The notes under the pieces are model-generated. The model was not told the origin of the DNA. It searched no databases and was given only the letters and a program-made list of their open reading frames with translations. 64,000 nt of DNA. Source: a virus (Duplodnaviria > Caudoviricetes). Of this stretch, positions 2,122-62,455 are shown in pieces (within the stretch, counting starts at the first letter, position 1; each line of letters starts with the position of its first letter). The DNA is taken from positions 1 to 64,000 of IMG/VR virus record IMGVR_UViG_3300014204_000151, one strand, 5' to 3'. The position numbers and the translations under genes were made by a program.

Positions 2122-2421
2122 TATAGTGTGGGTGAGTATTAAATCAGATAACTGGGAACACTGATACTGGTGAGATAATGAGCGGATTAAAAGTGGACAG
2201 CGGTTTAGAGATTCCTGCCGAGAACTCAAAAGCTTCGCCGGCCCGCTTTTTAAAAATTGTCTTTGTTTTGATGATGAGGATGGAGTCCGAAGAAAAGGAA
2301 GGTGAGTAAATAATGGGGATATAAGAGACTATTTACAGGTGGTAATAAATAGAATCATACAATTATCATTAACGGTATTATCTGTAGAAGAACTTAGTTT
2401 AACCGAATTGCCAAAGAAAAA

Positions 2422-2568
2422 ATGAGAATATATTATAAACAATCTTCAGTCGGAAAAAAGAAAAAGTACAAACAATTTATAATTAGAATTGGTATTTTTA
2501 AATTTAGTTTAACAAGGTTTGGAAAAAGGTTTGATTTAGTGTTTTCGATAAATAATTGGGATTGTTGA
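2422..2568 (+). CDS. small basic hypothetical protein (48 aa)
   Basis: MRIYYKQSSVGKKKKYKQF...; stop lies 1 bp before the next ATG. Confidence 0.45.
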   Translation: MRIYYKQSSVGKKKKYKQFIIRIGIFKFSLTRFGKRFDLVFSINNWDC

Positions 2569-2569
2569 T

Positions 2570-2740
2570 ATGGAAAAAATAAATGATATACAAAAAGAAA
2601 TAATATTAATACATCTCAACAGGTGTTTTAAAATTTATGGAATAGGTGGTACTGAGGATAAAATAAAAGAAATATATAAAAATTTACCAAAGATTAAGCA
2701 AGCATATTTAAAATTGTATTGGGAAAAGGTAAGGGGATAA
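2570..2740 (+). CDS. small hypothetical protein (56 aa)
   Basis: MEKINDIQKEIILIHLNRCF...; stop abuts the ruvB start. Confidence 0.6.
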   Translation: MEKINDIQKEIILIHLNRCFKIYGIGGTEDKIKEIYKNLPKIKQAYLKLYWEKVRG

Positions 2741-2741
2741 T

Positions 2742-3755
2742 ATGGATATATTTGATTTTTTAGGTATAACGCAGTTGTTATCGTGGACAGATAAAAAATT
2801 ATCTGACCAGAATAATAGTGTTCAAAGTCCATTGCCTAATACTAAATTTAGCTATAGACCACAAAATTTTGATGAGTTTATTTCTCAAGAAAAAGCAAAA
2901 GATAAAATTAAATTAACGATAGAATTGATTAACAAAGGATTTCCAAGACATTTTTTATTGACCGGAGGGGCTGGATTAGGTAAGACTTCGATGGCAAATA
3001 TAATAGCTAATGAGTTAGGATTTAATTTCGTTTCTTATGTTGGAAGCAGTTTTAATATTTTTACCATGCAAGATTTTTTAGTAAAGAATCAAGATGGTAA
3101 ATTTGGGGATAAAACAAAACCTAATTTATTGTTTATTGATGAAATAGCGGGGGTTGATAGGAAAACACTTGCCTATATGTTGCCAATAATTGAGGATTTT
3201 AAACTTAATGGTTTAGATTTAAGAAAATTTTGTTTGGTTGGAGCCACGACGGATAATTATGTATTGATAAATAAATGTTCTCCTTTTGTTGATAGGATTC
3301 ACTGCCATATTACTATGGAGGATTATTCGAGCGAAGACATAAAAAATATATTAATTCAGTATAATGACCAAGTTCATAGAGCCAATATTTCTTCTGAGGT
3401 TTATGATATATTGAGTAAAAATGTTAGATTTACTCCAAGAATAGCAATTTCTTACTTTGATTTTTTAGTGGCGTGTGGGAGCCTTAATAAAGTTTTAAAA
3501 ATGAATAGAATAATAATGAATGGACTAACTGATTTAGATTTTAAAATTCTTAATCATTTAAAATTGGCAAAGGGAAAATCGGTGGGAGAAGAAACGTTAT
3601 CTATCATTGCTAATATTAGTAGAATAGAGTATAAGACTACTGTAGAACCATATTTATTAAGACAAGAGCTATTAAGTAGGACTTCTTCTGGAAGAATTAT
3701 TACAGACAGAGGCTTGGAATTTTTAAAGGAAGTGGGTATAGAAAATGGATACTAA
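2742..3755 (+). CDS. ruvB: RuvB-like Holliday junction branch-migration AAA+ ATPase
   Basis: Walker A GGAGLGKTS, Walker B LFIDEI, LVGATT, RFTPRIA, C-terminal VEPYLLRQELLSRTSSGRIIT. Confidence 0.85.
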   Translation: MDIFDFLGITQLLSWTDKKLSDQNNSVQSPLPNTKFSYRPQNFDEFISQEKAKDKIKLTIELINKGFPRHFLLTGGAGLGKTSMANIIANELGFNFVSYVGSSFNIFTMQDFLVKNQDGKFGDKTKPNLLFIDEIAGVDRKTLAYMLPIIEDFKLNGLDLRKFCLVGATTDNYVLINKCSPFVDRIHCHITMEDYSSEDIKNILIQYNDQVHRANISSEVYDILSKNVRFTPRIAISYFDFLVACGSLNKVLKMNRIIMNGLTDLDFKILNHLKLAKGKSVGEETLSIIANISRIEYKTTVEPYLLRQELLSRTSSGRIITDRGLEFLKEVGIENGY

Positions 3756-4578
3756 AGAGAAGTTGGAGCAGTTTTCTCAATATTTAATGGCTCGTGGATG
3801 GAGTTTAAACTATAGAAACTCTATGCGATTAATTTTAAATTATTTAGATGAGAATAAGATTTTATTTGAAAGCATCAGTCAAGATATTATAACAAAACTT
3901 TTTAATAGTAGAAACTATTCTCTTTCTTCTAAAAATCAATTTATTAAGGCTGGTCGTCGGTATGGAGATTTTTTAGGCATACCAAAAGAGAACAACGCTT
4001 TTTATGTTATTAAATTGCTTCCTGTTGGATATAATATACCTAATTTTATAACGGCAGAAGAAATAAGAGACGGTATTAAATATTTAAAAACGTATCATAG
4101 CGATATTTGTTCTACAGCAAAGATTGATGCTGTTTTTGATTTTTTATTTGCTACAGGGTGTAGAAAAACCGAGTTATTAACATTAAAAAGAGATAGATTT
4201 AATTTATCTAATAATAGTTGTAAGGTATTAGGAAAAGGAAATAAAGAGCGAAATATATATTTTAACGATAGAGTTAAACAAGAAATAGAATTATATTTTT
4301 CTACAGAAGAAGAGGAGTTTAATGCTTTTAATATTACTTCATCACGATTAATATATTTGGTTAAATTGGTTAGTAAATATCTAAATAAAAATATCTATAT
4401 ACACTTGTTAAGGCACTCAGCGGCCAGAAATATGATAATGAAAGATATACCTGTTCAAATAGTAAAAGAAATATTGGGGCATAAAAGTTTACAGATGACT
4501 GAGCGATATACTCAACCAAATGATAAGATGATTTCTGAGAAATATAAGGAAAAAATGAACAAAAGAGGAGGGATATAA
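3745..4578 (+). CDS. XerC/D-like tyrosine recombinase
   Basis: Catalytic set: ATGCRKTEL (R), GKGNKER (K), HLLRH (HxxR), LGH...MTERY (H,Y). Confidence 0.92.
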   Translation: MDTKEKLEQFSQYLMARGWSLNYRNSMRLILNYLDENKILFESISQDIITKLFNSRNYSLSSKNQFIKAGRRYGDFLGIPKENNAFYVIKLLPVGYNIPNFITAEEIRDGIKYLKTYHSDICSTAKIDAVFDFLFATGCRKTELLTLKRDRFNLSNNSCKVLGKGNKERNIYFNDRVKQEIELYFSTEEEEFNAFNITSSRLIYLVKLVSKYLNKNIYIHLLRHSAARNMIMKDIPVQIVKEILGHKSLQMTERYTQPNDKMISEKYKEKMNKRGGI

Positions 4579-4766
4579 TGGAAACCATAATAAGAGAATT
4601 GGATGCTACAGAAAAACTTGCCGAGGATATTTTAAACAAATTAACGCCCCAACTTACAAAAGTGGGTCGCCATCAGATCTTGGGATTATCTGATAATATT
4701 AAATGTAGAATTTGTGAAATTAACGCCACTTTGAAAAGAGTTAGTGAAGAACTTGATAAGTTTTAG
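4578..4766 (+). CDS. hypothetical protein
   Basis: GGAGGG RBS, 62 aa, coupled to the recombinase gene. Confidence 0.65.
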   Translation: METIIRELDATEKLAEDILNKLTPQLTKVGRHQILGLSDNIKCRICEINATLKRVSEELDKF

Positions 4767-4787
4767 ATATGATTAAAATAAGCGAGA

Positions 4788-4808
4788 AATAATATTCTAT
4801 GCTATACT
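4788..4808 (+). promoter_or_regulatory. phage promoter motif copy
   Basis: AATAATATTCTATGCTATACT. Confidence 0.8.
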
Positions 4809-4828
4809 TTAACTAAGGAGGAATAAAA

Positions 4829-5805: not shown

Positions 5806-6054
5806 ATGAAACTAAAATCCTATCTTTATACTAATAGAGATGTTATAATCAGAATTCAAGCAAAAAAGAAACCTTCTATTGATACTCAAAGACCCTCAGG
5901 AACTTGGGTAGTTAATGAGTTATATAATAATGAATGGTGTATGCCATGTTTTCCAGAAATAACTTGGGGAAAGTTAAGAACCATGATTTATCTTGGAGTT
6001 TTAAATGATGAACCTAAAGAAGAATTTGTAAACATATTGGTTAATAGAAAATGA
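5806..6054 (+). CDS. hypothetical protein
   Basis: 82-aa ORF with ATGA overlap into the next gene. Confidence 0.6.
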   Translation: MKLKSYLYTNRDVIIRIQAKKKPSIDTQRPSGTWVVNELYNNEWCMPCFPEITWGKLRTMIYLGVLNDEPKEEFVNILVNRK

Positions 6055-6815
6055 TAGATAATATTTATGTGTTAGACGCCGGTTGTTATATTCACAAAGC
6101 CATTTTTTCTTTCCAAGGAAATTTATCAAAAACTGATACTTGGTTGGAATCTGCTTCTATTACATTTTTAAGAATGATAATCGGAGATTTGAATAAAACT
6201 AAATTTAATCCAGAAGATTCTATAATAATTTTAGCTCAAGATGGGGGTAGGTCGTGGCGTAAAGATTTTTCCGATACATATAAAGCTACCAGAAAAAAGA
6301 AGAGAGAGCAGTTGGAAGATGGGGATTGGTGGAAAATTATGTATAAAGAAATGGACGATGTTATTACTATGGTTGATAATAGTTTACCAATTTACTGTTT
6401 AAAATTGCCCAGAATAGAGGCTGATGATATTGCATCTGTTTGTTGTAGATATTTTAAAGATAAGTCTATAATTTTATATTCGTTTGATGCCGATTGGGAG
6501 CAACTTTGTTATTATGATCGGACTCGTTTATTTTCTCCAAAATCAAAAAAATTTAAAATAGTTAAAGATCCGATAGGAGTTTTACAGAAAAAAATAGATA
6601 GTGGCGATGTATCTGATGAAATAAAAGGAAAGCCGAAAAGTGAGTCGGAAAGGATTATAAGAGAAAAAATAATAAGTCTATTAAAATTACCAATAGAAAT
6701 AGAATTACCAATAATAGAAGCATTGGATAATATTAAACCTAAGTCTTTACAATTATCAAAATTTATAGCACCCCCCAGGGTAAAAAGGAGCTTGGTAAAA
6801 TTGTTTGGTTTGTAG
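6051..6815 (+). CDS. T4 RNase H-like / 5'-3' (flap) exonuclease
   Basis: VLDAG, AQDGGRSWRK...YKATRKK, EADDIAS, SFDADWEQL, GDVSDEI. Confidence 0.85.
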   Translation: MIDNIYVLDAGCYIHKAIFSFQGNLSKTDTWLESASITFLRMIIGDLNKTKFNPEDSIIILAQDGGRSWRKDFSDTYKATRKKKREQLEDGDWWKIMYKEMDDVITMVDNSLPIYCLKLPRIEADDIASVCCRYFKDKSIILYSFDADWEQLCYYDRTRLFSPKSKKFKIVKDPIGVLQKKIDSGDVSDEIKGKPKSESERIIREKIISLLKLPIEIELPIIEALDNIKPKSLQLSKFIAPPRVKRSLVKLFGL

Positions 6816-6816
6816 A

Positions 6817-6837
6817 AATAATATTATATGCTATACT
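6817..6837 (+). promoter_or_regulatory. phage promoter motif copy
   Basis: AATAATATTATATGCTATACT, followed by TATAGT. Confidence 0.85.
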
Positions 6838-6844
6838 TATAGTA

Positions 6845-7086
6845 GAAGGATAATCCGGGACAGAAGAGAACATAAGTAATTGGTATAGCTTGGCTGGAGG
6901 GCTTGGAAACCCAGAAAAACTTGATTTAGATAACAGGAGACATTAATCTCCCAAGAATCTTATCGAAGTTTCCCCAAAGTGGGAAGATACAGGTTGTTTA
7001 CAATCTGGATTAAGACACCAAGAAACTGGTGAAACTCTTTTTCTAACTGACATACACTTCCAAGCGGTTAGATTACCGGATTTTTA
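6845..7086 (+). ncRNA. candidate structured ncRNA, family unrecognised
   Basis: Starts at the promoter-predicted start; at least 9 mutually compatible helices, closing stem AATCCGG/CCGGATT plus T-run, 7-bp loop-loop pairing; no substantial ORF recognised. Confidence 0.65.
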
Positions 7087-7291
7087 AAAGATTAATTACG
7101 CAATCTATACGGTATTGCGATGGAGATAACATCATACTTATCCGTGTGGAGATAAAGAAGAATCGCTAAACTCTACGTATATAGATTGCAAATATAGTTG
7201 TAATAGAGTGTAGATTTTTTTGGGGGTTGATAAAGATATATCAAGAGAAAATAAAAACCATTATACTAACACAAAAGAAAGGAAAACTATT

Positions 7292-7444
7292 ATGGGAAGG
7301 AATCGGTTATCAGTATTAGAAAAGTTGGAACGTAAGTTAGTTAGGTTACAAGCTGAAATTGAGGAAGTTAAAAGTGAAATATCGTTACAATCGGTTGAAA
7401 TTCCGGCAAATGATAATCCAGAAAAAATAAAAAAGGAGGACTAA
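7292..7444 (+). CDS. small coiled-coil hypothetical protein (50 aa)
   Basis: AAGGA RBS, ATG7292 (more likely than the tracked TTG7220). Confidence 0.6.
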   Translation: MGRNRLSVLEKLERKLVRLQAEIEEVKSEISLQSVEIPANDNPEKIKKED

Positions 7445-8061
7445 TGCAATCTAAGGTAAAAATAAATGCAAAGAATACTAAGGGTAATGCTTTTTATGGT
7501 GATGATGGGCAGTGGTACAATGTTTTTGATGCTAAAGTAAAAGAGGATTATGATAAGATAGCAAAGTTAGAAGTTGTTGAAATTGAATATGAATTAAAAG
7601 ATGGTAGAAAGATTGTAAGTAAAATAAAAAAAGTTGATGGTAATACTACTTCTAATTCTACTCAAAATACTAATACTACCAAAACCGAAGAAGTTTCAAA
7701 ACCGGCTACAGGATTTAAGTGTGAGGTTTGTGGAAAAGAATTGAAAGATGGCAAATTTAAAAAGTGCTTTGTATGTAATAAAAATGGGGCAACGAAAAAA
7801 GAAGAACCTAAACCTACACCAACTAATGTTGAAAAACCAGTAGAACAGAAGCCTAAAGATACTTTTGTTCCTAAAGCTGGTGGATATGGTTCTCCGCAGG
7901 ATACATTAGGTAAGCAGGTTGGATGTGCTATAAATGCTTCTTCAATGATTATGAGTAATCCTTCTATTGAATTACCTGATAATACACCGGAAACATTTGT
8001 TAAGGTAACAAAAATGATTGCCGAAGAATTGTTGGCTTATATGCAAAGTAAACAAATATAA
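7444..8061 (+). CDS. hypothetical protein (possible OB-fold/ssDNA-binding N-terminus, CxxC-CxxC zinc finger)
   Basis: AGGAGG RBS; beta-rich N-terminus, CEVC...CFVC; fold is inference. Confidence 0.7.
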   Translation: MQSKVKINAKNTKGNAFYGDDGQWYNVFDAKVKEDYDKIAKLEVVEIEYELKDGRKIVSKIKKVDGNTTSNSTQNTNTTKTEEVSKPATGFKCEVCGKELKDGKFKKCFVCNKNGATKKEEPKPTPTNVEKPVEQKPKDTFVPKAGGYGSPQDTLGKQVGCAINASSMIMSNPSIELPDNTPETFVKVTKMIAEELLAYMQSKQI

Positions 8062-8083
8062 CCAATTGTATTAATTAAAGTTT

Positions 8084-8163
8084 TGCGGGATATGGTAATG
8101 GAAACCAAGGGGCCTCATAAGCCTCTGGCGTAAGCCTCGTGAGTTCGATTCTCACTCCCACTA
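8084..8163 (+). tRNA. tRNA with CAT anticodon (Met or Ile2), long variable arm, imperfect acceptor stem, no encoded CCA
   Basis: D stem TGGT/ACCA; anticodon stem GGGGC/GCCTC with loop CTCATAA; T arm GTGAG-TTCGATT-CTCAC; acceptor TGCGGGA/TCCCACT. Confidence 0.8.
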
Positions 8164-8337
8164 TTAAATTTTTGAGAGTTATGATAGTATGGAGGCTCTT
8201 TTTTAAAAATAACTATACCCATTAGTTACGGTTAGCATAACTAATTACTGTTATGGACGGGAATATTGGAACTGAAGACACGATAAGAAAGTTTAAGAAG
8301 CTTGGCAAAAAAGATTTGATAATTTGTTAGGAGAAGT

Positions 8338-10302
8338 ATGGTTGCCAAGAAACATATGTTTGTTGTTTATCAGATTCGGAATCTAGTTAATGGTAAAAGT
8401 TATATTGGTCGGTTTAAAAATAGGAGGACATCTGTGACATTTGAACTTTATATAGAATATTTAAAATCTCATATTTCAAATTTTAAATCCACCAACAAAG
8501 GAAAACTTCGCCTTACATGTGTCAACCAGACAAAACATCCATATCAATCAAATATTCCCACAATGGAGTGGATTTCTGGTTCAGAAAAATTTTGTTGCTT
8601 AATTTGTGGATGGAGAGGCAAAATAATTGATTGTGTTCGTCTTTTAGAACCAGATAAAGCTACAATGTCAGAGGAAGAAATATTAAATTATCTTTCTTCT
8701 ACCAATAAAAAAGAATATCCAGAATTAAGTGTTTATCAGAAATATGGATTTTCATTGGTAAGAGAAGCGAAGAACGGACGATCTCCGTTTGATGATGGGT
8801 GGACTAAAACTCCAAAATATAATATTGCTGAGTGGAAACAATGGTTAGATAAAGGGTATAATATTGCTTTAATGACTGGAGAGTTTAGTAAATGTACAGG
8901 TATAGATTTTGACTTATATAAGATTAAAGAGCATACAGAAAATACCCAGAAAATATTAGAGTGGTTGGAATCTGCACAAACATTGGTTCAAACATCTCGC
9001 TCTGGTGGTAAGCATTATTTTTTTACGTATGACCCAGACTTTAAAAATGACCAACCGGAGGGGCTTTATCTTGATATTAAAAATAATGGTGGGGCTATAA
9101 CATTACAACCTTCTAAAATTGATGGAAAATATTATGAATTTATTAACCTTGGTGCAGAGATAAAACCAATACCAAAAGAATTAAAGGAGTTTCTTTTAAA
9201 TTATAAACCAAAAAGACCGGAAGTTAAAACCGTAGAGCAAGATGAAATACAAAAAATGGAAGGTATTAAAACTTTTGGAGACGGTGATGGTAGAAATGTT
9301 TTGATTACTTCTTTAGGAGGACTATTTGTAAATAGATTTCAACCCGATGATACAGAATTTATAATGAATGTAATAAACAATAAATTTTTTAATCCAAGAT
9401 TATCTCCATCGGAAATAACTGCGAGTTTAAAAAGTTTAACTGGATATAAACAAAATGCAGAATTATCACAAGGAGAAAAAGTATTTGAATATTTAAAAGA
9501 AATGAAAGATGTTACTCCGTTGGATACTAAAGATAGTTTACAGTTGAGCCGGGCAATAGTAGATAAGTGGTTATCTTTATTTGTAAAAAAGGGTAAAGCT
9601 ATTAGGATTGGAAAAGGAAGAGGAGTACATTATCAATATAAAGAGAAAGTAGATTGGTCTGATGAGTTGCCGGAGAATAAAAATAATAGTTTACCTTATC
9701 AAGTTCCATGGTTCAGTCATATCCACAATTTTTCAGTTTCTGATATGATGATTCTCGGAGGTTTGCCAGGTAGTACCAAAACCTCGTGTGCGATGAATAT
9801 TATTAAACAAATGTCATTGCAAGGAGTAAAGGTTCATTATATTGGAACAGAGGCCGGTTCAAGATATAACTCAACCTGCGAAAAATTAGGAATTAAGAGT
9901 GGAGATTTTTATAGATTAAAAAATGATGAAGAACAAATAAATCCGTTAGGTATAGAATTAGAACCTAATAGTTTTACAATACTTGATTGGTTGGATATTC
10001 AAGATTTTTCTGAGACTCATATTATAATGAAACATTTGAATGATGAATTAAAAAAGTCAAAAGGATTTTTGGTTATATTCACCCAATTAAAAAAAGAAAG
10101 TTATGATTACTTTAGCAAGAACTTGATTGATTTTTATGCTGCATTTGCGGCAAGATATATTTTTGATGATAGGAGTCAAGGATTAGGACATTGGGTTGTG
10201 GATAAGGTTCGGGAAGCAAAAATAGCATATCAGGATTATAGCTCAGTTAATATGATTTTTAATTATAAAACGTATGAATTAAATCGGGTTGAGAATCTAT
10301 GA
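8338..10302 (+). CDS. primase-polymerase (AEP/Prim-Pol) fused to RecA-family helicase-like domain, N-terminal zinc-binding region
   Basis: NIALMTG...GIDFD...QTSRSGGKHYFF...DIKNNGGAITLQPS; GRNVLITSLGG; P-loop-like GLPGSTKT; TILD. Confidence 0.8.
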   Translation: MVAKKHMFVVYQIRNLVNGKSYIGRFKNRRTSVTFELYIEYLKSHISNFKSTNKGKLRLTCVNQTKHPYQSNIPTMEWISGSEKFCCLICGWRGKIIDCVRLLEPDKATMSEEEILNYLSSTNKKEYPELSVYQKYGFSLVREAKNGRSPFDDGWTKTPKYNIAEWKQWLDKGYNIALMTGEFSKCTGIDFDLYKIKEHTENTQKILEWLESAQTLVQTSRSGGKHYFFTYDPDFKNDQPEGLYLDIKNNGGAITLQPSKIDGKYYEFINLGAEIKPIPKELKEFLLNYKPKRPEVKTVEQDEIQKMEGIKTFGDGDGRNVLITSLGGLFVNRFQPDDTEFIMNVINNKFFNPRLSPSEITASLKSLTGYKQNAELSQGEKVFEYLKEMKDVTPLDTKDSLQLSRAIVDKWLSLFVKKGKAIRIGKGRGVHYQYKEKVDWSDELPENKNNSLPYQVPWFSHIHNFSVSDMMILGGLPGSTKTSCAMNIIKQMSLQGVKVHYIGTEAGSRYNSTCEKLGIKSGDFYRLKNDEEQINPLGIELEPNSFTILDWLDIQDFSETHIIMKHLNDELKKSKGFLVIFTQLKKESYDYFSKNLIDFYAAFAARYIFDDRSQGLGHWVVDKVREAKIAYQDYSSVNMIFNYKTYELNRVENL

Positions 10303-37183: not shown

Positions 37184-39253
37184 ATGATAAAAACTTTAAG
37201 CGTAAAAAATTTTCGTTTATTAAAAAACTGCAAGTTTAATTTTAGTCAAATTAACTTAATAGACGGAATCAATAAAGATGTAAGTGATTGTCCGGCAAAT
37301 AGTTCGGGGAAGTCAACCTTAGTCCAAAGTTTGCTCTTTTGTTTAACGGGTGATGTTTATAAAATCACTCAAAAACAAATACTGCATAAAGGAACTAAAT
37401 CCGCAGAAGTTACCATACAAGCAGAAGAAAATGGACATTTGTATGATATTACCAGGTCTATTCCTTCTGATTTATCCATTAAAATTGATGGTGAAGATTT
37501 TAAAGCTAATACACCAACACTAAAACAGCCGGAGGTTGATAAACTCTATGGAGATAAACAATTTATTAAACAATTCCGCAACATGGGAAAGGATAAAGAA
37601 ACAGATTTATTGGCTATGGGGCCAGTTTCTATTCGTAAGGTTTTAATGGGGTTTGTAGACGATTTATTTGTTAATGCAAGACAGCAACTTTTAGACGAAT
37701 TAAACCATAGAGAACAATATTCTATAACCAAACGACCTTATTGTTTTTATTTATCAGAAAAAAGGTTACAAGTATTAAAAGAATCTTTAACCAAATTAAA
37801 ACAGAATCAATCTAACTTAGAACAAATAACTCACAATCAACAATTGCTCATTCAAAACATTAAAACTGATATAGCTAAAAAAGAATTGGTTGAAAAGCAA
37901 TTAAACTCTCAAATTAAATCAAATGAGGACTCTGTTATAAAAAATAAAACCGCTATTGATAATTATAAAACAAAGATAGAAGATATAAATAATATTACTC
38001 TTACTCTTCCAGAAAAAATAAATTATACGGAACAAATAGAATCAATAGAATCGGATATATCAAATTTTGAAGAGTTGATTGTAGAAATCCAATCCGAGTA
38101 TGATGTTAAATATAACATTTTTGAGAAATTAAGATATTCTCAATCTGACTTAGAATTAAAGATAAAAGATTCGCATAGTAAAATTGCCGATTGTGAAATA
38201 GAAATAAAAACTATTACTAAAGCTGTAAGCGGACAAAAATGTAATAAATGCGGCTCTTTAATTACAGAAGATAATAAATCCATTTATATTGCAGACCAAC
38301 AAAAATTGATTGAAGATTATACTGTTCAAAAAAATGGACACGAGTCTAATTTATTAGACATTAATACAAAACTATCAGAAATAGAAAAAGAATTAAATAC
38401 ATTAAAATCCCAGATACAATCGCATAACAATGAAATAAGCCGGTTTAGATTAGAAGTTAAAAACATTACCAATAAAAACACCAATCAAGAAGAACTTATC
38501 AACGAGTCTGCTCAACTGAATACAAAAAAGATTGCTGAAATAGAAAAATATAATTCTTTAATTACTTCTCTTAATGATACAATTAATTCTTTATTCGCTT
38601 CAAATCAAGAATTAGAGAACCAGTTAAAAGATATTCCTAATGAGTTAATGATATTGAAAGAACATTTGATAGAAGAAGAATCTTCTCTTTCTGACCAAAT
38701 TAAATCTAATACGCTTGTACAGAATAAAATAAAAAGAGTGGAATCTTTTATTATGAAATTATCAGAGTCATTCAAATTTTCTGAGTATAAGTTTACGGGG
38801 GTAGATTTATTTGAATACAAAGAATCAATTAAATTATTGGATAATTTTGCGGCTTTTTATGTTGCAGAATTTTTACAGAATCTGGAGATTGTAATAAATG
38901 GAATGATTTCTATTATCAATATGTCTATAAAATTTACAACGGATAAATCCTTTCTTACTATTAAAGATGGGGAAGAAGAGTATAGTTATGACGAATTAAG
39001 TTCTGGACAGCAAGCGGTGTTGAATATTATTTTCAAAAGTGGGGTTTTAATGACTCAAGGTATTCACTCCGGTTTCATTACCTCTGACGAGGCGTTAGAT
39101 ACGCTCCATAATACCAATTTTATTAAGCTTGTGGAGATATTAAAAACTCTTCCCTATCAGTACTTCTTAGTCAAACAAAATCCCCCAGAATTAGAAGGAG
39201 TTAATATTATAAAATTAGTTAGAGAAAATGGGGCAACTTCGGTTCAGGAATAA
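37184..39253 (+). CDS. SbcC/Rad50-like SMC ATPase
   Basis: NSSGKST, long coiled coil with CNKC zinc hook, LSSGQ, SDEALDTL. Confidence 0.88.
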   Translation: MIKTLSVKNFRLLKNCKFNFSQINLIDGINKDVSDCPANSSGKSTLVQSLLFCLTGDVYKITQKQILHKGTKSAEVTIQAEENGHLYDITRSIPSDLSIKIDGEDFKANTPTLKQPEVDKLYGDKQFIKQFRNMGKDKETDLLAMGPVSIRKVLMGFVDDLFVNARQQLLDELNHREQYSITKRPYCFYLSEKRLQVLKESLTKLKQNQSNLEQITHNQQLLIQNIKTDIAKKELVEKQLNSQIKSNEDSVIKNKTAIDNYKTKIEDINNITLTLPEKINYTEQIESIESDISNFEELIVEIQSEYDVKYNIFEKLRYSQSDLELKIKDSHSKIADCEIEIKTITKAVSGQKCNKCGSLITEDNKSIYIADQQKLIEDYTVQKNGHESNLLDINTKLSEIEKELNTLKSQIQSHNNEISRFRLEVKNITNKNTNQEELINESAQLNTKKIAEIEKYNSLITSLNDTINSLFASNQELENQLKDIPNELMILKEHLIEEESSLSDQIKSNTLVQNKIKRVESFIMKLSESFKFSEYKFTGVDLFEYKESIKLLDNFAAFYVAEFLQNLEIVINGMISIINMSIKFTTDKSFLTIKDGEEEYSYDELSSGQQAVLNIIFKSGVLMTQGIHSGFITSDEALDTLHNTNFIKLVEILKTLPYQYFLVKQNPPELEGVNIIKLVRENGATSVQE

Positions 39254-39269
39254 TAATGTATGCTATACT
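39249..39269 (+). promoter_or_regulatory. phage promoter motif copy
   Basis: AATAATAATGTATGCTATACT-TATAGT. Confidence 0.8.
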
Positions 39270-39318
39270 TATAGTAGAGAATAGATAAAGTTAAAGCACA
39301 TCTACGGTGGAGGCGTGA

Positions 39319-39966
39319 ATGGAAACAAAACTGACAAGTTTGGCAAAAGAATACAAAAAAACAAAGTCCGATAAAGTACTAAACGATATTTTTAAAGAAT
39401 TAGAAGAACCATTAAGAAAAAAAGCAAATTTTGTATATTATTCCCAAAGATTTGTTAAATCCAAGTTTTCTACTAATGATATTAATATTAACACAAAGAA
39501 AAGAGAATTTAAAAATAAGGTTAAAACTTTTAAGTTAAAAGATGTTAGAGGAATAGAAATAGAAGATATTCAGCAAGAACTATATTTACAAGTATTGCTT
39601 TTATTAAAAAATTATAATACTAAATCTCCTTTTGATAATTACTTATTTGGAACATTAAAAAAATGGCGACCTTCTTTTCTTCGAGAAAATAATTTTATTA
39701 AAGATTTAGATACTATTAGAGAAGATAAGTTATTTAATGAAGATGATTGTGGTGGAATTAATATTTTAGGAAAATCAGAAGAATCGGCGATAGAAATTCT
39801 TGATTTCTTTGAACCTCTAACAGATGAAGAAGAAAAATATATCCAGTTAAAAATAAAGAATCCAAACTTAAAAAAATCAGAAATAGAAAAGCGGTTAGGA
39901 ATAACACCTACAAACCTAAACAAATTAATAAAAAATATAAAGAATAAAACGTTGCGAGAGGAGTAA
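39319..39966 (+). CDS. sigma70/ECF-like RNA polymerase sigma factor
   Basis: Region 2-like EDIQQELYLQVLLLLKNYN...FDNYL; region 4-like HTH LTDEE...KSEIEKRLGITPTNLNKLIKNIKNK. Confidence 0.75.
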   Translation: METKLTSLAKEYKKTKSDKVLNDIFKELEEPLRKKANFVYYSQRFVKSKFSTNDININTKKREFKNKVKTFKLKDVRGIEIEDIQQELYLQVLLLLKNYNTKSPFDNYLFGTLKKWRPSFLRENNFIKDLDTIREDKLFNEDDCGGINILGKSEESAIEILDFFEPLTDEEEKYIQLKIKNPNLKKSEIEKRLGITPTNLNKLIKNIKNKTLREE

Positions 39967-62253: not shown

Positions 62254-62415
62254 TGTAACTCCAAAAGCAAAAAAGCGCACCTTGAGCCATCGACCCAGTC
62301 AACGCCCTTAATGCGCTCTGCATAATTATGCTATTATTTTTAGAAATACCTAAATAATTATTCATTATAAATTCTCCATACAAAAACATTTTTCACCATA
62401 CATTTGAAACTTTGG

Positions 62416-62439
62416 GAGGGGAGAAATTAATCTCCCCTC
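62416..62439 (-). terminator. GC-rich hairpin after the tail tube gene (terminator or stabilizer)
   Basis: GAGGGGAGA-AATTAA-TCTCCCCTC; weak U-tract on the - strand. Confidence 0.45.
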
Positions 62440-62455
62440 TTAAAAAAACTATCAC

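Follow-up and report, generated by a model that had tools for sequence, protein, structure and literature searches.

A noncoding cassette of a single phage lineage, downstream of a promoter motif that is repeated in the genome, as a plausible structured RNA or 5' leader

Introduction

The pRNA of phi29 is a small phage RNA of 120-174 nt that is built on a three-way junction, is expressed from an early promoter and carries two complementary loops pairing between molecules, which thereby assemble into rings; it belongs to the ~20-kb phi29-like podoviruses, whose replication is protein-primed. Among the structured 5' leaders, the antitermination RNAs of the put and nut type are short, not exceeding ~70 nt, and lie ahead of defined terminators. 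As for the larger phage RNAs, ROOL reaches roughly 500-600 nt. ROOL and GOLLD are often located near tRNAs and rely on kissing loops as a central part of their architecture, many GOLLD members being longer than 800 nt (PMC12286853).

The locus considered here lies in a window of 64 kb, that is, the whole stretch of DNA that was analysed, which forms the first part of an 85.9-kb IMG/VR phage record (GC 30%). From the letters alone, the original prediction had read positions 6845-7086 as a free-standing RNA of ~240 nt, with a ten-helix junction, a kissing-loop pseudoknot, its own promoter and a T-run at its end. The observation itself is confirmed, and a lineage-specific structured RNA or 5' leader cassette is plausible, if unproven: the stretch is noncoding and promoter-proximal, it folds moderately better than chance, and its distribution is cassette-like.

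When set beside ROOL and GOLLD, the stretch is likewise phage-borne and noncoding, with a tRNA gene ~1 kb downstream and two loops that are complementary over 8 nt, but the two known families are much larger, widespread and supported by covariation, whereas ~240 nt, a single lineage and no Rfam match are found here. With the phi29 pRNA, it has in common a pair of mutually complementary loops, at the level of the sequence only, in a phage that differs by its size of 86-88 kb, by its Prim-Pol and, again, by the lack of an Rfam match. By model match, size, distribution and covariation, the stretch is a member of neither ROOL, GOLLD nor pRNA, while it shares with them the idea of complementary loops and the phage and tRNA context. 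Its place just after a promoter and ahead of an operon, together with a 5'-terminal stem-loop domain that is predicted to be closed, recalls structured leaders such as stabilisers, put/nut elements and operators, with the difference from put/nut that no partner terminators or binding proteins were identified. Finally, like MITE/REP-like elements, both units of the gap (modules 1 and 2, Table 1) are bounded by inverted repeats and the second recurs in another context, but module 1 is single-copy, has ends of 7 bp and lacks a target duplication, and neither a transposase partner nor a multi-copy family was found to accompany it.

Genomic context and promoter

The stretch is located between the 5'-3' exonuclease gene and a series of co-oriented genes that leads to the Prim-Pol primase (Table 1). 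With 6816-7291, or 6816-7219 at the minimum, no other ORF-free gap of the window is as large as this space, the end at 7291 assuming a start at the ATG that has a good Shine-Dalgarno sequence; the second largest measures 276 nt and contains the tRNA. Within 6816-7219 there is no ORF of at least 45 aa, and a credible start codon first appears at 7292 (ATG). The claim that the stretch holds no gene is in agreement with these data, since there is no open frame, no PHROG match, and, for Pfam, a single sub-threshold match: the search of the open pieces against Pfam and PHROG returned only IBR, in a minus-strand frame, with an E-value of 0.028 and 14.9 bits for a cut-off of 24.3. The GC content of 6845-7087 is 39%, compared to 30% for the genome.

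The TATACT taken for a promoter in the original prediction is found exactly at 6832-6837 and is part of a genuine repeat family, with 7-8 copies of a ~30-41-nt motif containing TGcTATACT, all on the + strand; judging by its sequence, this motif probably acts as a promoter. At the other seven listed copies, a purine run of the Shine-Dalgarno type and an ATG appear within the next ~20-55 nt, whereas neither is encountered for ~450 nt downstream of the copy at 6814-6843. In L006, the nearest relative, whose exonuclease is 67% identical, the promoter occupies the same place and is directly followed by a 57-aa gene (hydrophobic, membrane-protein-like), and then by the homologues of the 50-aa and 205-aa genes; nothing in L006 resembles 6845-7291. 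From the position of the promoter in L006, directly ahead of the 57-aa gene and of the 50-aa homologue, the copy at 6814-6843 would normally drive the downstream genes. Given this arrangement and the position of the nearest other promoter copies of the window, at 4785 and 10417, a transcript starting at ~6844-6846 most likely runs on from the 50-aa gene to Prim-Pol.

Three of these features support the reading as a leader or RNA, namely the size of the ORF-free gap, the ~450 nt without Shine-Dalgarno sequence or ATG behind the promoter, and the fact that, in L006, the promoter is directly followed by homologues of the downstream genes.

Table 1. Features of the locus, with positions in the 64-kb window
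Feature	Position	Strand	Basis or remark
5'-3' exonuclease gene, upstream neighbour	6051-6815		PF02739
Promoter motif copy (putative)	6814-6843	+	Extended -10 TGcTATACT; TATACT 6832-6837; weak -35-like TTGTAG 16 nt upstream
Module 1, candidate closed multi-hairpin RNA domain	6845-7087	+	MFE, no ORF, no Rfam match
P1 closing helix (predicted)	6852-6858/7076-7082	+	Ensemble pair probability 0.72-1.0
P2 closing helix (predicted)	6862-6868/7035-7041	+	Ensemble pair probability 0.58-0.89
5' loop partner GCUUGGAA	6901-6908	+	Watson-Crick complement of 7058-7065
Predicted hairpin GGAGA-CAUUAA-UCUCC	6936-6951	+	Pair probability 0.86-1.0
Predicted hairpin CAGGUUG-UUUA-CAAUCUG	6990-7007	+	Pair probability 0.95-0.97
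Predicted 3' hairpin, 8 bp, 15-nt loop with the 3' loop partner	7042-7072	+	Pair probability 0.86-0.99
Five-T run right after P1, where termination might occur weakly or in part	7082-7086	+	Sequence
Module 2, 90-nt unit	7100-7189	+	Perfect 10-nt inverted repeats 7100-7109/7180-7189
Seven-T run after weak A/U-rich stems, alternative 3' end (~375-nt RNA)	7213-7219	+	Sequence and fold
First downstream gene, 50 aa	7292-7444	+	Homologous to the 46-aa gene of the relative L006
205-aa gene	7444-8061		Co-oriented with the 50-aa gene
tRNA, anticodon CAT	8083-8164		Co-oriented with the downstream genes
Prim-Pol primase	8338-10302		Co-oriented with the downstream genes

Secondary structure and fold statistics

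All eleven strings and coordinates of the original prediction are exact, and its helices, which include three G-U wobble pairs, are mutually compatible in a valid nested structure; its energy, -51.5 kcal/mol, does not improve on the average MFE of the shuffles (-50.3 kcal/mol). Folding of the 242-nt stretch gives an MFE of -60.5 kcal/mol, corresponding to z = -2.35, and 2 of 200 dinucleotide shuffles are as good. As the reverse strand gives z = -2.34, the fold itself picks no strand. Among 80 arbitrarily phased 242-nt windows of the phage (mean z of 0, sd 1.06), 2.5% reach z -2.35 and 1.25% reach -60.5 kcal/mol.

The boundaries of the stretch had been picked to suit the closing helices. Besides, when boundaries are optimised in an Lfold scan of the full 86 kb on both strands, with a span of up to 260 nt, at least 12 non-overlapping folds per strand are obtained at -62 to -103 kcal/mol, mostly within genes, and many folds of 230-260 nt inside genes are equally stable. 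The folding energy, which had been proposed as a check of the RNA, is beyond that of most shuffles, but equal or better folds with optimised boundaries are common in the genome. The fold signal is better than chance only moderately, being real but modest.

In the ensemble, most pairs of P1, P2, the GGAGA and CAGGUUG hairpins and the 3' hairpin reach probabilities of 0.86-1.0, with values down to 0.58 for end pairs, and the CACCA and UUCCC hairpins come at ~0.5-0.6. The CTTG/CAAG, CTGG/CCAG and TCTTATC/GATTAAGA helices have a probability of about zero because a competing arm, 6917-6925/6962-6971, wins. The detailed ten-helix junction is not supported in this respect, three of its helices being thermodynamically disfavoured. 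The closing helices persist when the entire gap 6845-7292 is folded, and the ensemble diversity is ordinary, at the 23rd percentile of the shuffles. For comparison, 2128-2421, an ORF-poor stretch that also lies behind a promoter copy, folds worse than its shuffles (z = +1.29).

The z-score of the 242-nt stretch, the probable P1, P2 and three hairpins and the persistence of the domain in the whole-gap fold all speak for a leader or RNA, and so does the poor folding of 2128-2421. On the other side, this reading is weakened by the many coding stretches that fold as stably or better once boundaries are optimised over the genome, by the ordinary ensemble diversity, by the three helices of near-zero probability and by the same z on the reverse strand.

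Known RNA families and homologue searches

Rfam 15 is expected to include GOLLD, ROOL, phage pRNA, RNase P, tmRNA, 6S, SRP, group I/II introns, riboswitches and small ribozymes. Searched over the 64 kb, it gave no match at the gathering threshold, consistent with the claim that hallmarks of known RNAs are lacking. With the limit relaxed to E <= 10, searches of 651 nt and of 256 nt returned only a chance match, to a structureless human lncRNA model (11.2 bits vs 45). The 5' GGAUAAUCCGGG and the 3' CCGGAUU resemble the conserved strands of the RNase P P4 helix; this idea was dropped, as no RNase P model matches at E <= 10 and the conserved blocks on either side follow another arrangement. Leads towards a T-box, a hammerhead or a retron were also rejected, no motif or partner gene being present. 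Neither RVT_1 nor TROVE genes gave a match in the 86-kb record, and the Ro/Y-RNA lead was rejected on the lack of a TROVE gene there.

Homologues of the stretch were searched for in several collections. No match was found by blastn in GenBank phages and PLSDB plasmids, nor by three IMG/VR pattern scans; a 19-mer scan of JGI metagenomes gave no homologue and 3 chance matches, in contigs of 58-63% GC, while a two-block scan of the GTDB genomes gave 3 chance matches, none of which matched the covariance model. In the same line, nhmmer and blastn returned nothing on 21 related loci, 17 of them being further IMG/VR loci of the phage group. A covariance model built from the originally proposed structure (R1) gave, together with BLAST, no match in 5 complete relatives of 96-110 kb and none in 16 loci. 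Locus searches starting from single proteins recovered no homologue of the stretch, and possible antisense targets within the phage genome were limited to short matches at chance level. A 489-aa protein (P0042) that clusters with the 50-aa protein was rejected as lying in unrelated DNA, and no prophage relatives of the 205-aa protein were found in the GTDB genomes.

The copies known are the near-identical ones of L008, an 88-kb ENA contig in which the stretch is identical, and of a contig of run X4, plus a partial allele, L009. The phage is present in the samples of runs X1-X6, and no RNA run was encountered among the sequencing runs listed for the stretch. Since there is no homologue beyond near-identical strains, no covariation can be obtained, which weakens the case for a leader or RNA. 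The conservation that had been proposed as a check is likewise absent from homologous loci outside these strains. This absence does not disprove a lineage-specific RNA, but it takes away the one computational route to proof. As far as the collections searched reach, the cassette is an orphan of one phage lineage.

A structured leader as the first-ranked reading

We rank first, at a confidence that falls somewhat short of even, a structured 5' leader that may also give rise to a processed or partially terminated RNA of ~240 nt. As to the transcription of the cassette, its 3' end and any function, we infer the following from the features above. The region 6845-7291 would be a lineage-specific noncoding cassette, located directly behind the promoter in the slot that a small gene occupies in relatives, and would most likely be transcribed as the 5' part of the transcript of the replication module, on which the 50-aa and 205-aa genes are followed by the tRNA-CAT and Prim-Pol. 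The initial 240 nt of the cassette would form a domain closed by P1 and P2, with three robust and two weaker hairpins, whose most likely role would be that of a cis-acting structured leader, either as a 5' end stabiliser or as a binding platform. A discrete RNA of ~240 nt could be released at the five U that follow P1, or by processing such as the co-transcribed tRNA requires in any case.

The L009 allele, from JGI 3300037067, bears on this proposal in both directions. Over 3.8 kb, it has 10 differences, 5 of which lie within the 152 nt of module 1 reached by the contig, which stops at 6996. Two are the substitutions G6923A and A6966U; the other three, two substitutions and an insertion, are in the GGAGA hairpin loop, the stem being intact. 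All five are unpaired in the original ten-helix model, which would occur by chance with a probability of 0.06 if they count as five events and of 0.19 if they count as three, while in the MFE fold two of them disrupt neighbouring pairs of the arm 6917-6925/6962-6971. They mildly favour the originally proposed topology over the MFE, and fit weak constraint equally. Together with the lack of a coding signal, their placement at unpaired positions supports a structured leader or RNA; the latter is weakened in turn by the stretch being the most variable part of the 3.8 kb, by the two broken pairs of the MFE arm and by the lack of a canonical terminator. The variability seen in L009 fits relaxed constraint as well as allele exchange.

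Possible filler left by cassette exchange

The second-ranked explanation, which we hold as possible but doubtful, is that the cassette is non-functional filler left by exchange at the promoter repeats, as foreign or decayed DNA in place of a small accessory gene, its fold and its loop complement being chance features singled out by a reading in search of structure. It would account for the restriction of the stretch to one lineage while the slot of relatives is filled with tightly packed small ORFs: in L007, in L010 and in the gene tables of the contigs of P0009, the exonuclease, two small ORFs, a 183-aa-type gene and Prim-Pol come in this order without a gap, and L011 and the gene table of P0003 have the same tight beginning of that order, further genes intervening before Prim-Pol in some distant relatives. 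Besides, the promoter repeats act as recombination joints, as indicated by the junction within the repeat in L009 and by the switch to near-identity just past the promoter in X4. Filler would also agree with the elevated L009 variation in the stretch, with fold statistics that become unexceptional once boundaries are optimised, and with a kissing loop that has a p-value of ~0.035 and was found after many looks.

Against this, phage genomes are compact, and yet this gap is the largest in 64 kb; no trace of protein ancestry is seen in it, its z-score of -2.35 is to be compared with +1.29 for the comparable stretch 2128-2421, and the L009 changes miss all helices of the original model, including the stem of the GGAGA hairpin.

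Loop-loop complement and a proposed free-standing RNA

The reading along the lines of the original prediction, a trans-acting RNA of ~240 nt whose loops would pair within one molecule or between molecules, the latter giving dimers or rings, is a subset of the structured-leader reading, and we consider it unlikely. Its noncoding nature, its position behind a promoter and its place outside Rfam have stood, while the ten-helix detail, the terminator of its own and the kissing loop are not supported. With regard to the latter, the complement between 6902-6908 and 7058-7064, described as 7 nt long, is exact but in fact extends over 8 nt, GCUUGGAA at 6901-6908 facing UUCCAAGC at 7058-7065, for a duplex of -13.1 kcal/mol. 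This perfect complement counts in favour of a trans-acting RNA, as does the 3' loop, which is essentially always unpaired in the ensemble (unpaired probability of 0.93-0.99 for 7058-7063). The 5' partner, on the contrary, is mostly paired in the nested ensemble, with an unpaired probability of 0.26-0.44 for 5 of the 7 bases of 6902-6908, and an equally accessible 7-nt complement is present in 7 of 200 shuffles (3.5%). The tertiary kissing loop is accordingly unsupported, its chance probability being ~0.035 and no covariation being obtainable; an 8-nt loop-loop pairing may nevertheless form, to judge from the two strings.

At the 3' end, the T-run announced after the closing helix is confirmed as five T, and five U after P1 would suit a discrete RNA. 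However, P1 is a helix spanning 224 nt, so that the whole is not a canonical terminator, and the terminator scan calls none at 7076-7087, nor at 7213-7219; its sole call for the stretch falls within the RNA, at 7016-7031, while the clear terminators of this phage are GC-rich hairpins of 9-10 bp, at ~62411 and ~78321. A trans-acting RNA would also be in line with the tRNA 1 kb downstream, ROOL and GOLLD being often near tRNAs and built on kissing loops (PMC12286853). It is opposed by the lack of a match in Rfam 15 and by the downstream genes, which appear to need the promoter at 6814-6843.

A more specific version, which we regard as rather improbable, is that of a new, narrowly distributed small phage RNA: a ~240-nt domain of five to seven helices, expressed from an early or middle promoter, whose two loops would lock a compact tertiary fold or join copies head-to-tail into dimers or rings, and which would have been acquired in replacement of an accessory gene. 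If this were true, a compact promoter-driven phage RNA would have replaced a protein accessory gene, pointing to RNA 'morons' that move from strain to strain at promoter repeats. It would be a small-scale analogue of pRNA, ROOL and GOLLD, phage RNAs that self-assemble, and possibly a minimal natural system for folding or assembly mediated by loop-loop contacts. At present, the locus is mainly a caution, in that a persuasive hand-drawn multi-helix model and a perfect loop complement exceed only slightly what this AT-rich genome yields by chance, and its orphan distribution blocks the usual proof by covariation.

Inverted-repeat-bounded units and a possible DNA-level element

It is quite unlikely, in our view, that the cassette works as DNA, either as small units bounded by inverted repeats, whether MITE-like or recombination or binding sites, or as part of a replication origin between exonuclease and primase. 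The repeats AATCCGG/CCGGATT flank module 1, and module 2 lies between perfect inverted repeats of 10 nt; both speak for such units. Module 2 moreover occurs alone in another context: in run X3, the match of a contig of 1,025 nt is limited to precisely 7100-7189, up to the repeats and with 4 differences, the sequence on either side departing from that of the window, which indicates that the gap contains two separable units. A DNA element would further be compatible with the location within the replication module, with TGGAGATAA being present twice, 26 nt apart, and with both strands folding equally well; the fold of 7087-7225 has a z-score of -1.81.

Nevertheless, the 86-kb genome has one copy of module 1 and none of the collections searched has any, there is no evident duplication of a target site, and the three G-U wobble pairs would be mismatches in DNA. 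As for an origin, there is no iteron array or AT-rich unwinding block, 7087-7291 being at the GC level of the genome, and the cumulative GC skew makes no turn at 6845-7291.

The weakest candidate, an unrecognised or recently broken protein gene in frame +2, is close to refuted: this frame, which is that of the ORF at 7292, has few stops (TAA at 6944, 7085 and 7127 only) and an intermediate codon score (0.21-0.25 vs 0.40, sd 0.17, for genes and -0.12 for open out-of-frame windows), but it lacks a start codon with a Shine-Dalgarno sequence, TAA works as a stop in this phage (e.g. 7442-7444), a 1-nt insertion in L009 breaks what is the sole half-open frame, no PHROG or Pfam match lies in frame and the read-through product has zero matches among 1.84 billion representative proteins, so that, with no start, a frameshifted allele and no protein homology, the coding hypothesis for 6845-7291 was rejected.

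Recombination at the promoter repeats

The better-supported biology of this region is recombination at the promoter repeats, with 2123-4784 gained or lost as a cassette, a mosaic joint at ~6808 and a slot that carries different cargo. L009 is devoid of the window's 2123-4784 and has its junction inside the promoter repeat, which designates the promoter repeats as recombination joints and the region as a set of exchangeable cassettes. The contig of run X4, which covers 6852-7639, shows no more than a single, unlisted difference across its noncoding part. Because 7292-7639 is nearly identical as well, this tract looks like the product of recombination from the promoter repeat rather than of constraint on an RNA. 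On its two sides, the exonuclease gene upstream is ~3% divergent, with eight differences packed in 6770-6807, and 7885-8109 differs by ~3.6%.

Promoter repeats as recombination joints

A 2.66-kb block (2123-4784), which sits between the promoter copies at 2098-2138 and 4785-4825, is missing from L009, a JGI contig from a near-identical strain, and the rest of this contig is 99.6-99.9% identical to the window. The junction left by the missing block falls within the promoter repeat, showing that these repeats function as recombination joints. Together with the ORF listed in the table, the RuvB-like AAA and Phage_integrase genes called in the near-identical ENA contig L008, and placed here through their offset from this contig, also lie within the block. 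The block is an integrase-containing cassette carried by some strains and missing from others.

Directly upstream of the candidate, the comparison of sequencing run X4 with the window reveals a mosaic joint (region 6770-6810), with 8 differences crowded into the final 38 nt of the exonuclease gene and near-identity from the promoter on (6852-7639). On the 3' side of the candidate, a contig of 1,025 nt from run X3 matches the window over an interval that corresponds exactly to the 90-nt unit termed module 2, with 4 differences and no match on either side, thereby indicating that this unit is found in another sequence context.

With regard to the repeated promoter motif, a 215-aa ORF located just 3' of the copy at 39246-39286 displays a weak match to Sigma70_r2 (39547-39660; E 6e-4, below the cut-off). 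This ORF may code for a phage sigma factor, which could relate to the motif.

Coordinates and hallmarks of the listed features
Feature	Position	Hallmark
ORF	2742-3755	inside the block absent from L009
90-nt unit (module 2)	7100-7189	perfect 10-nt inverted repeats at both ends: GCAATCTATA / TATAGATTGC
Two near-identical GC-rich hairpins	window 62411-62445 and genome 78321-78355	core GGGGAGAAATTAATCTCCCC

Control stretch, tRNA and other folding elements

A second ORF-poor stretch of about 300 nt, found 3' of a promoter copy (2128-2421), folds worse than its own shuffles (z = +1.29) and was therefore used as a negative control for the candidate fold. A 43-aa ORF (2178-2309) may be the gene of this stretch. 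In addition, ARAGORN detected an 82-nt tRNA with anticodon CAT at 8083-8164, and no match to the Rfam tRNA family at gathering score was obtained in a search of the whole window, which is consistent with an atypical tRNA.

Of the two GC-rich hairpins, one has T runs at its flanks and the other an A run. Both look like bidirectional terminators, and their core resembles the internal GGAGA-CATTAA-TCTCC hairpin of the candidate (16/17 nt). At the start of the record (1-198), a GC-rich unit of 18 nt, TGTnCGnnnAGGCAnGGG, is repeated in tandem at least 7 times in this genome of 30% GC, and the most stable local fold of the + strand (1-259; 51% GC) arises from this repeat. Outside the window, an island with 59% GC in this 30%-GC genome (genome 78396-79160) folds locally more stably than any other part of the record, with energies of -90 to -103 kcal/mol for the - strand.
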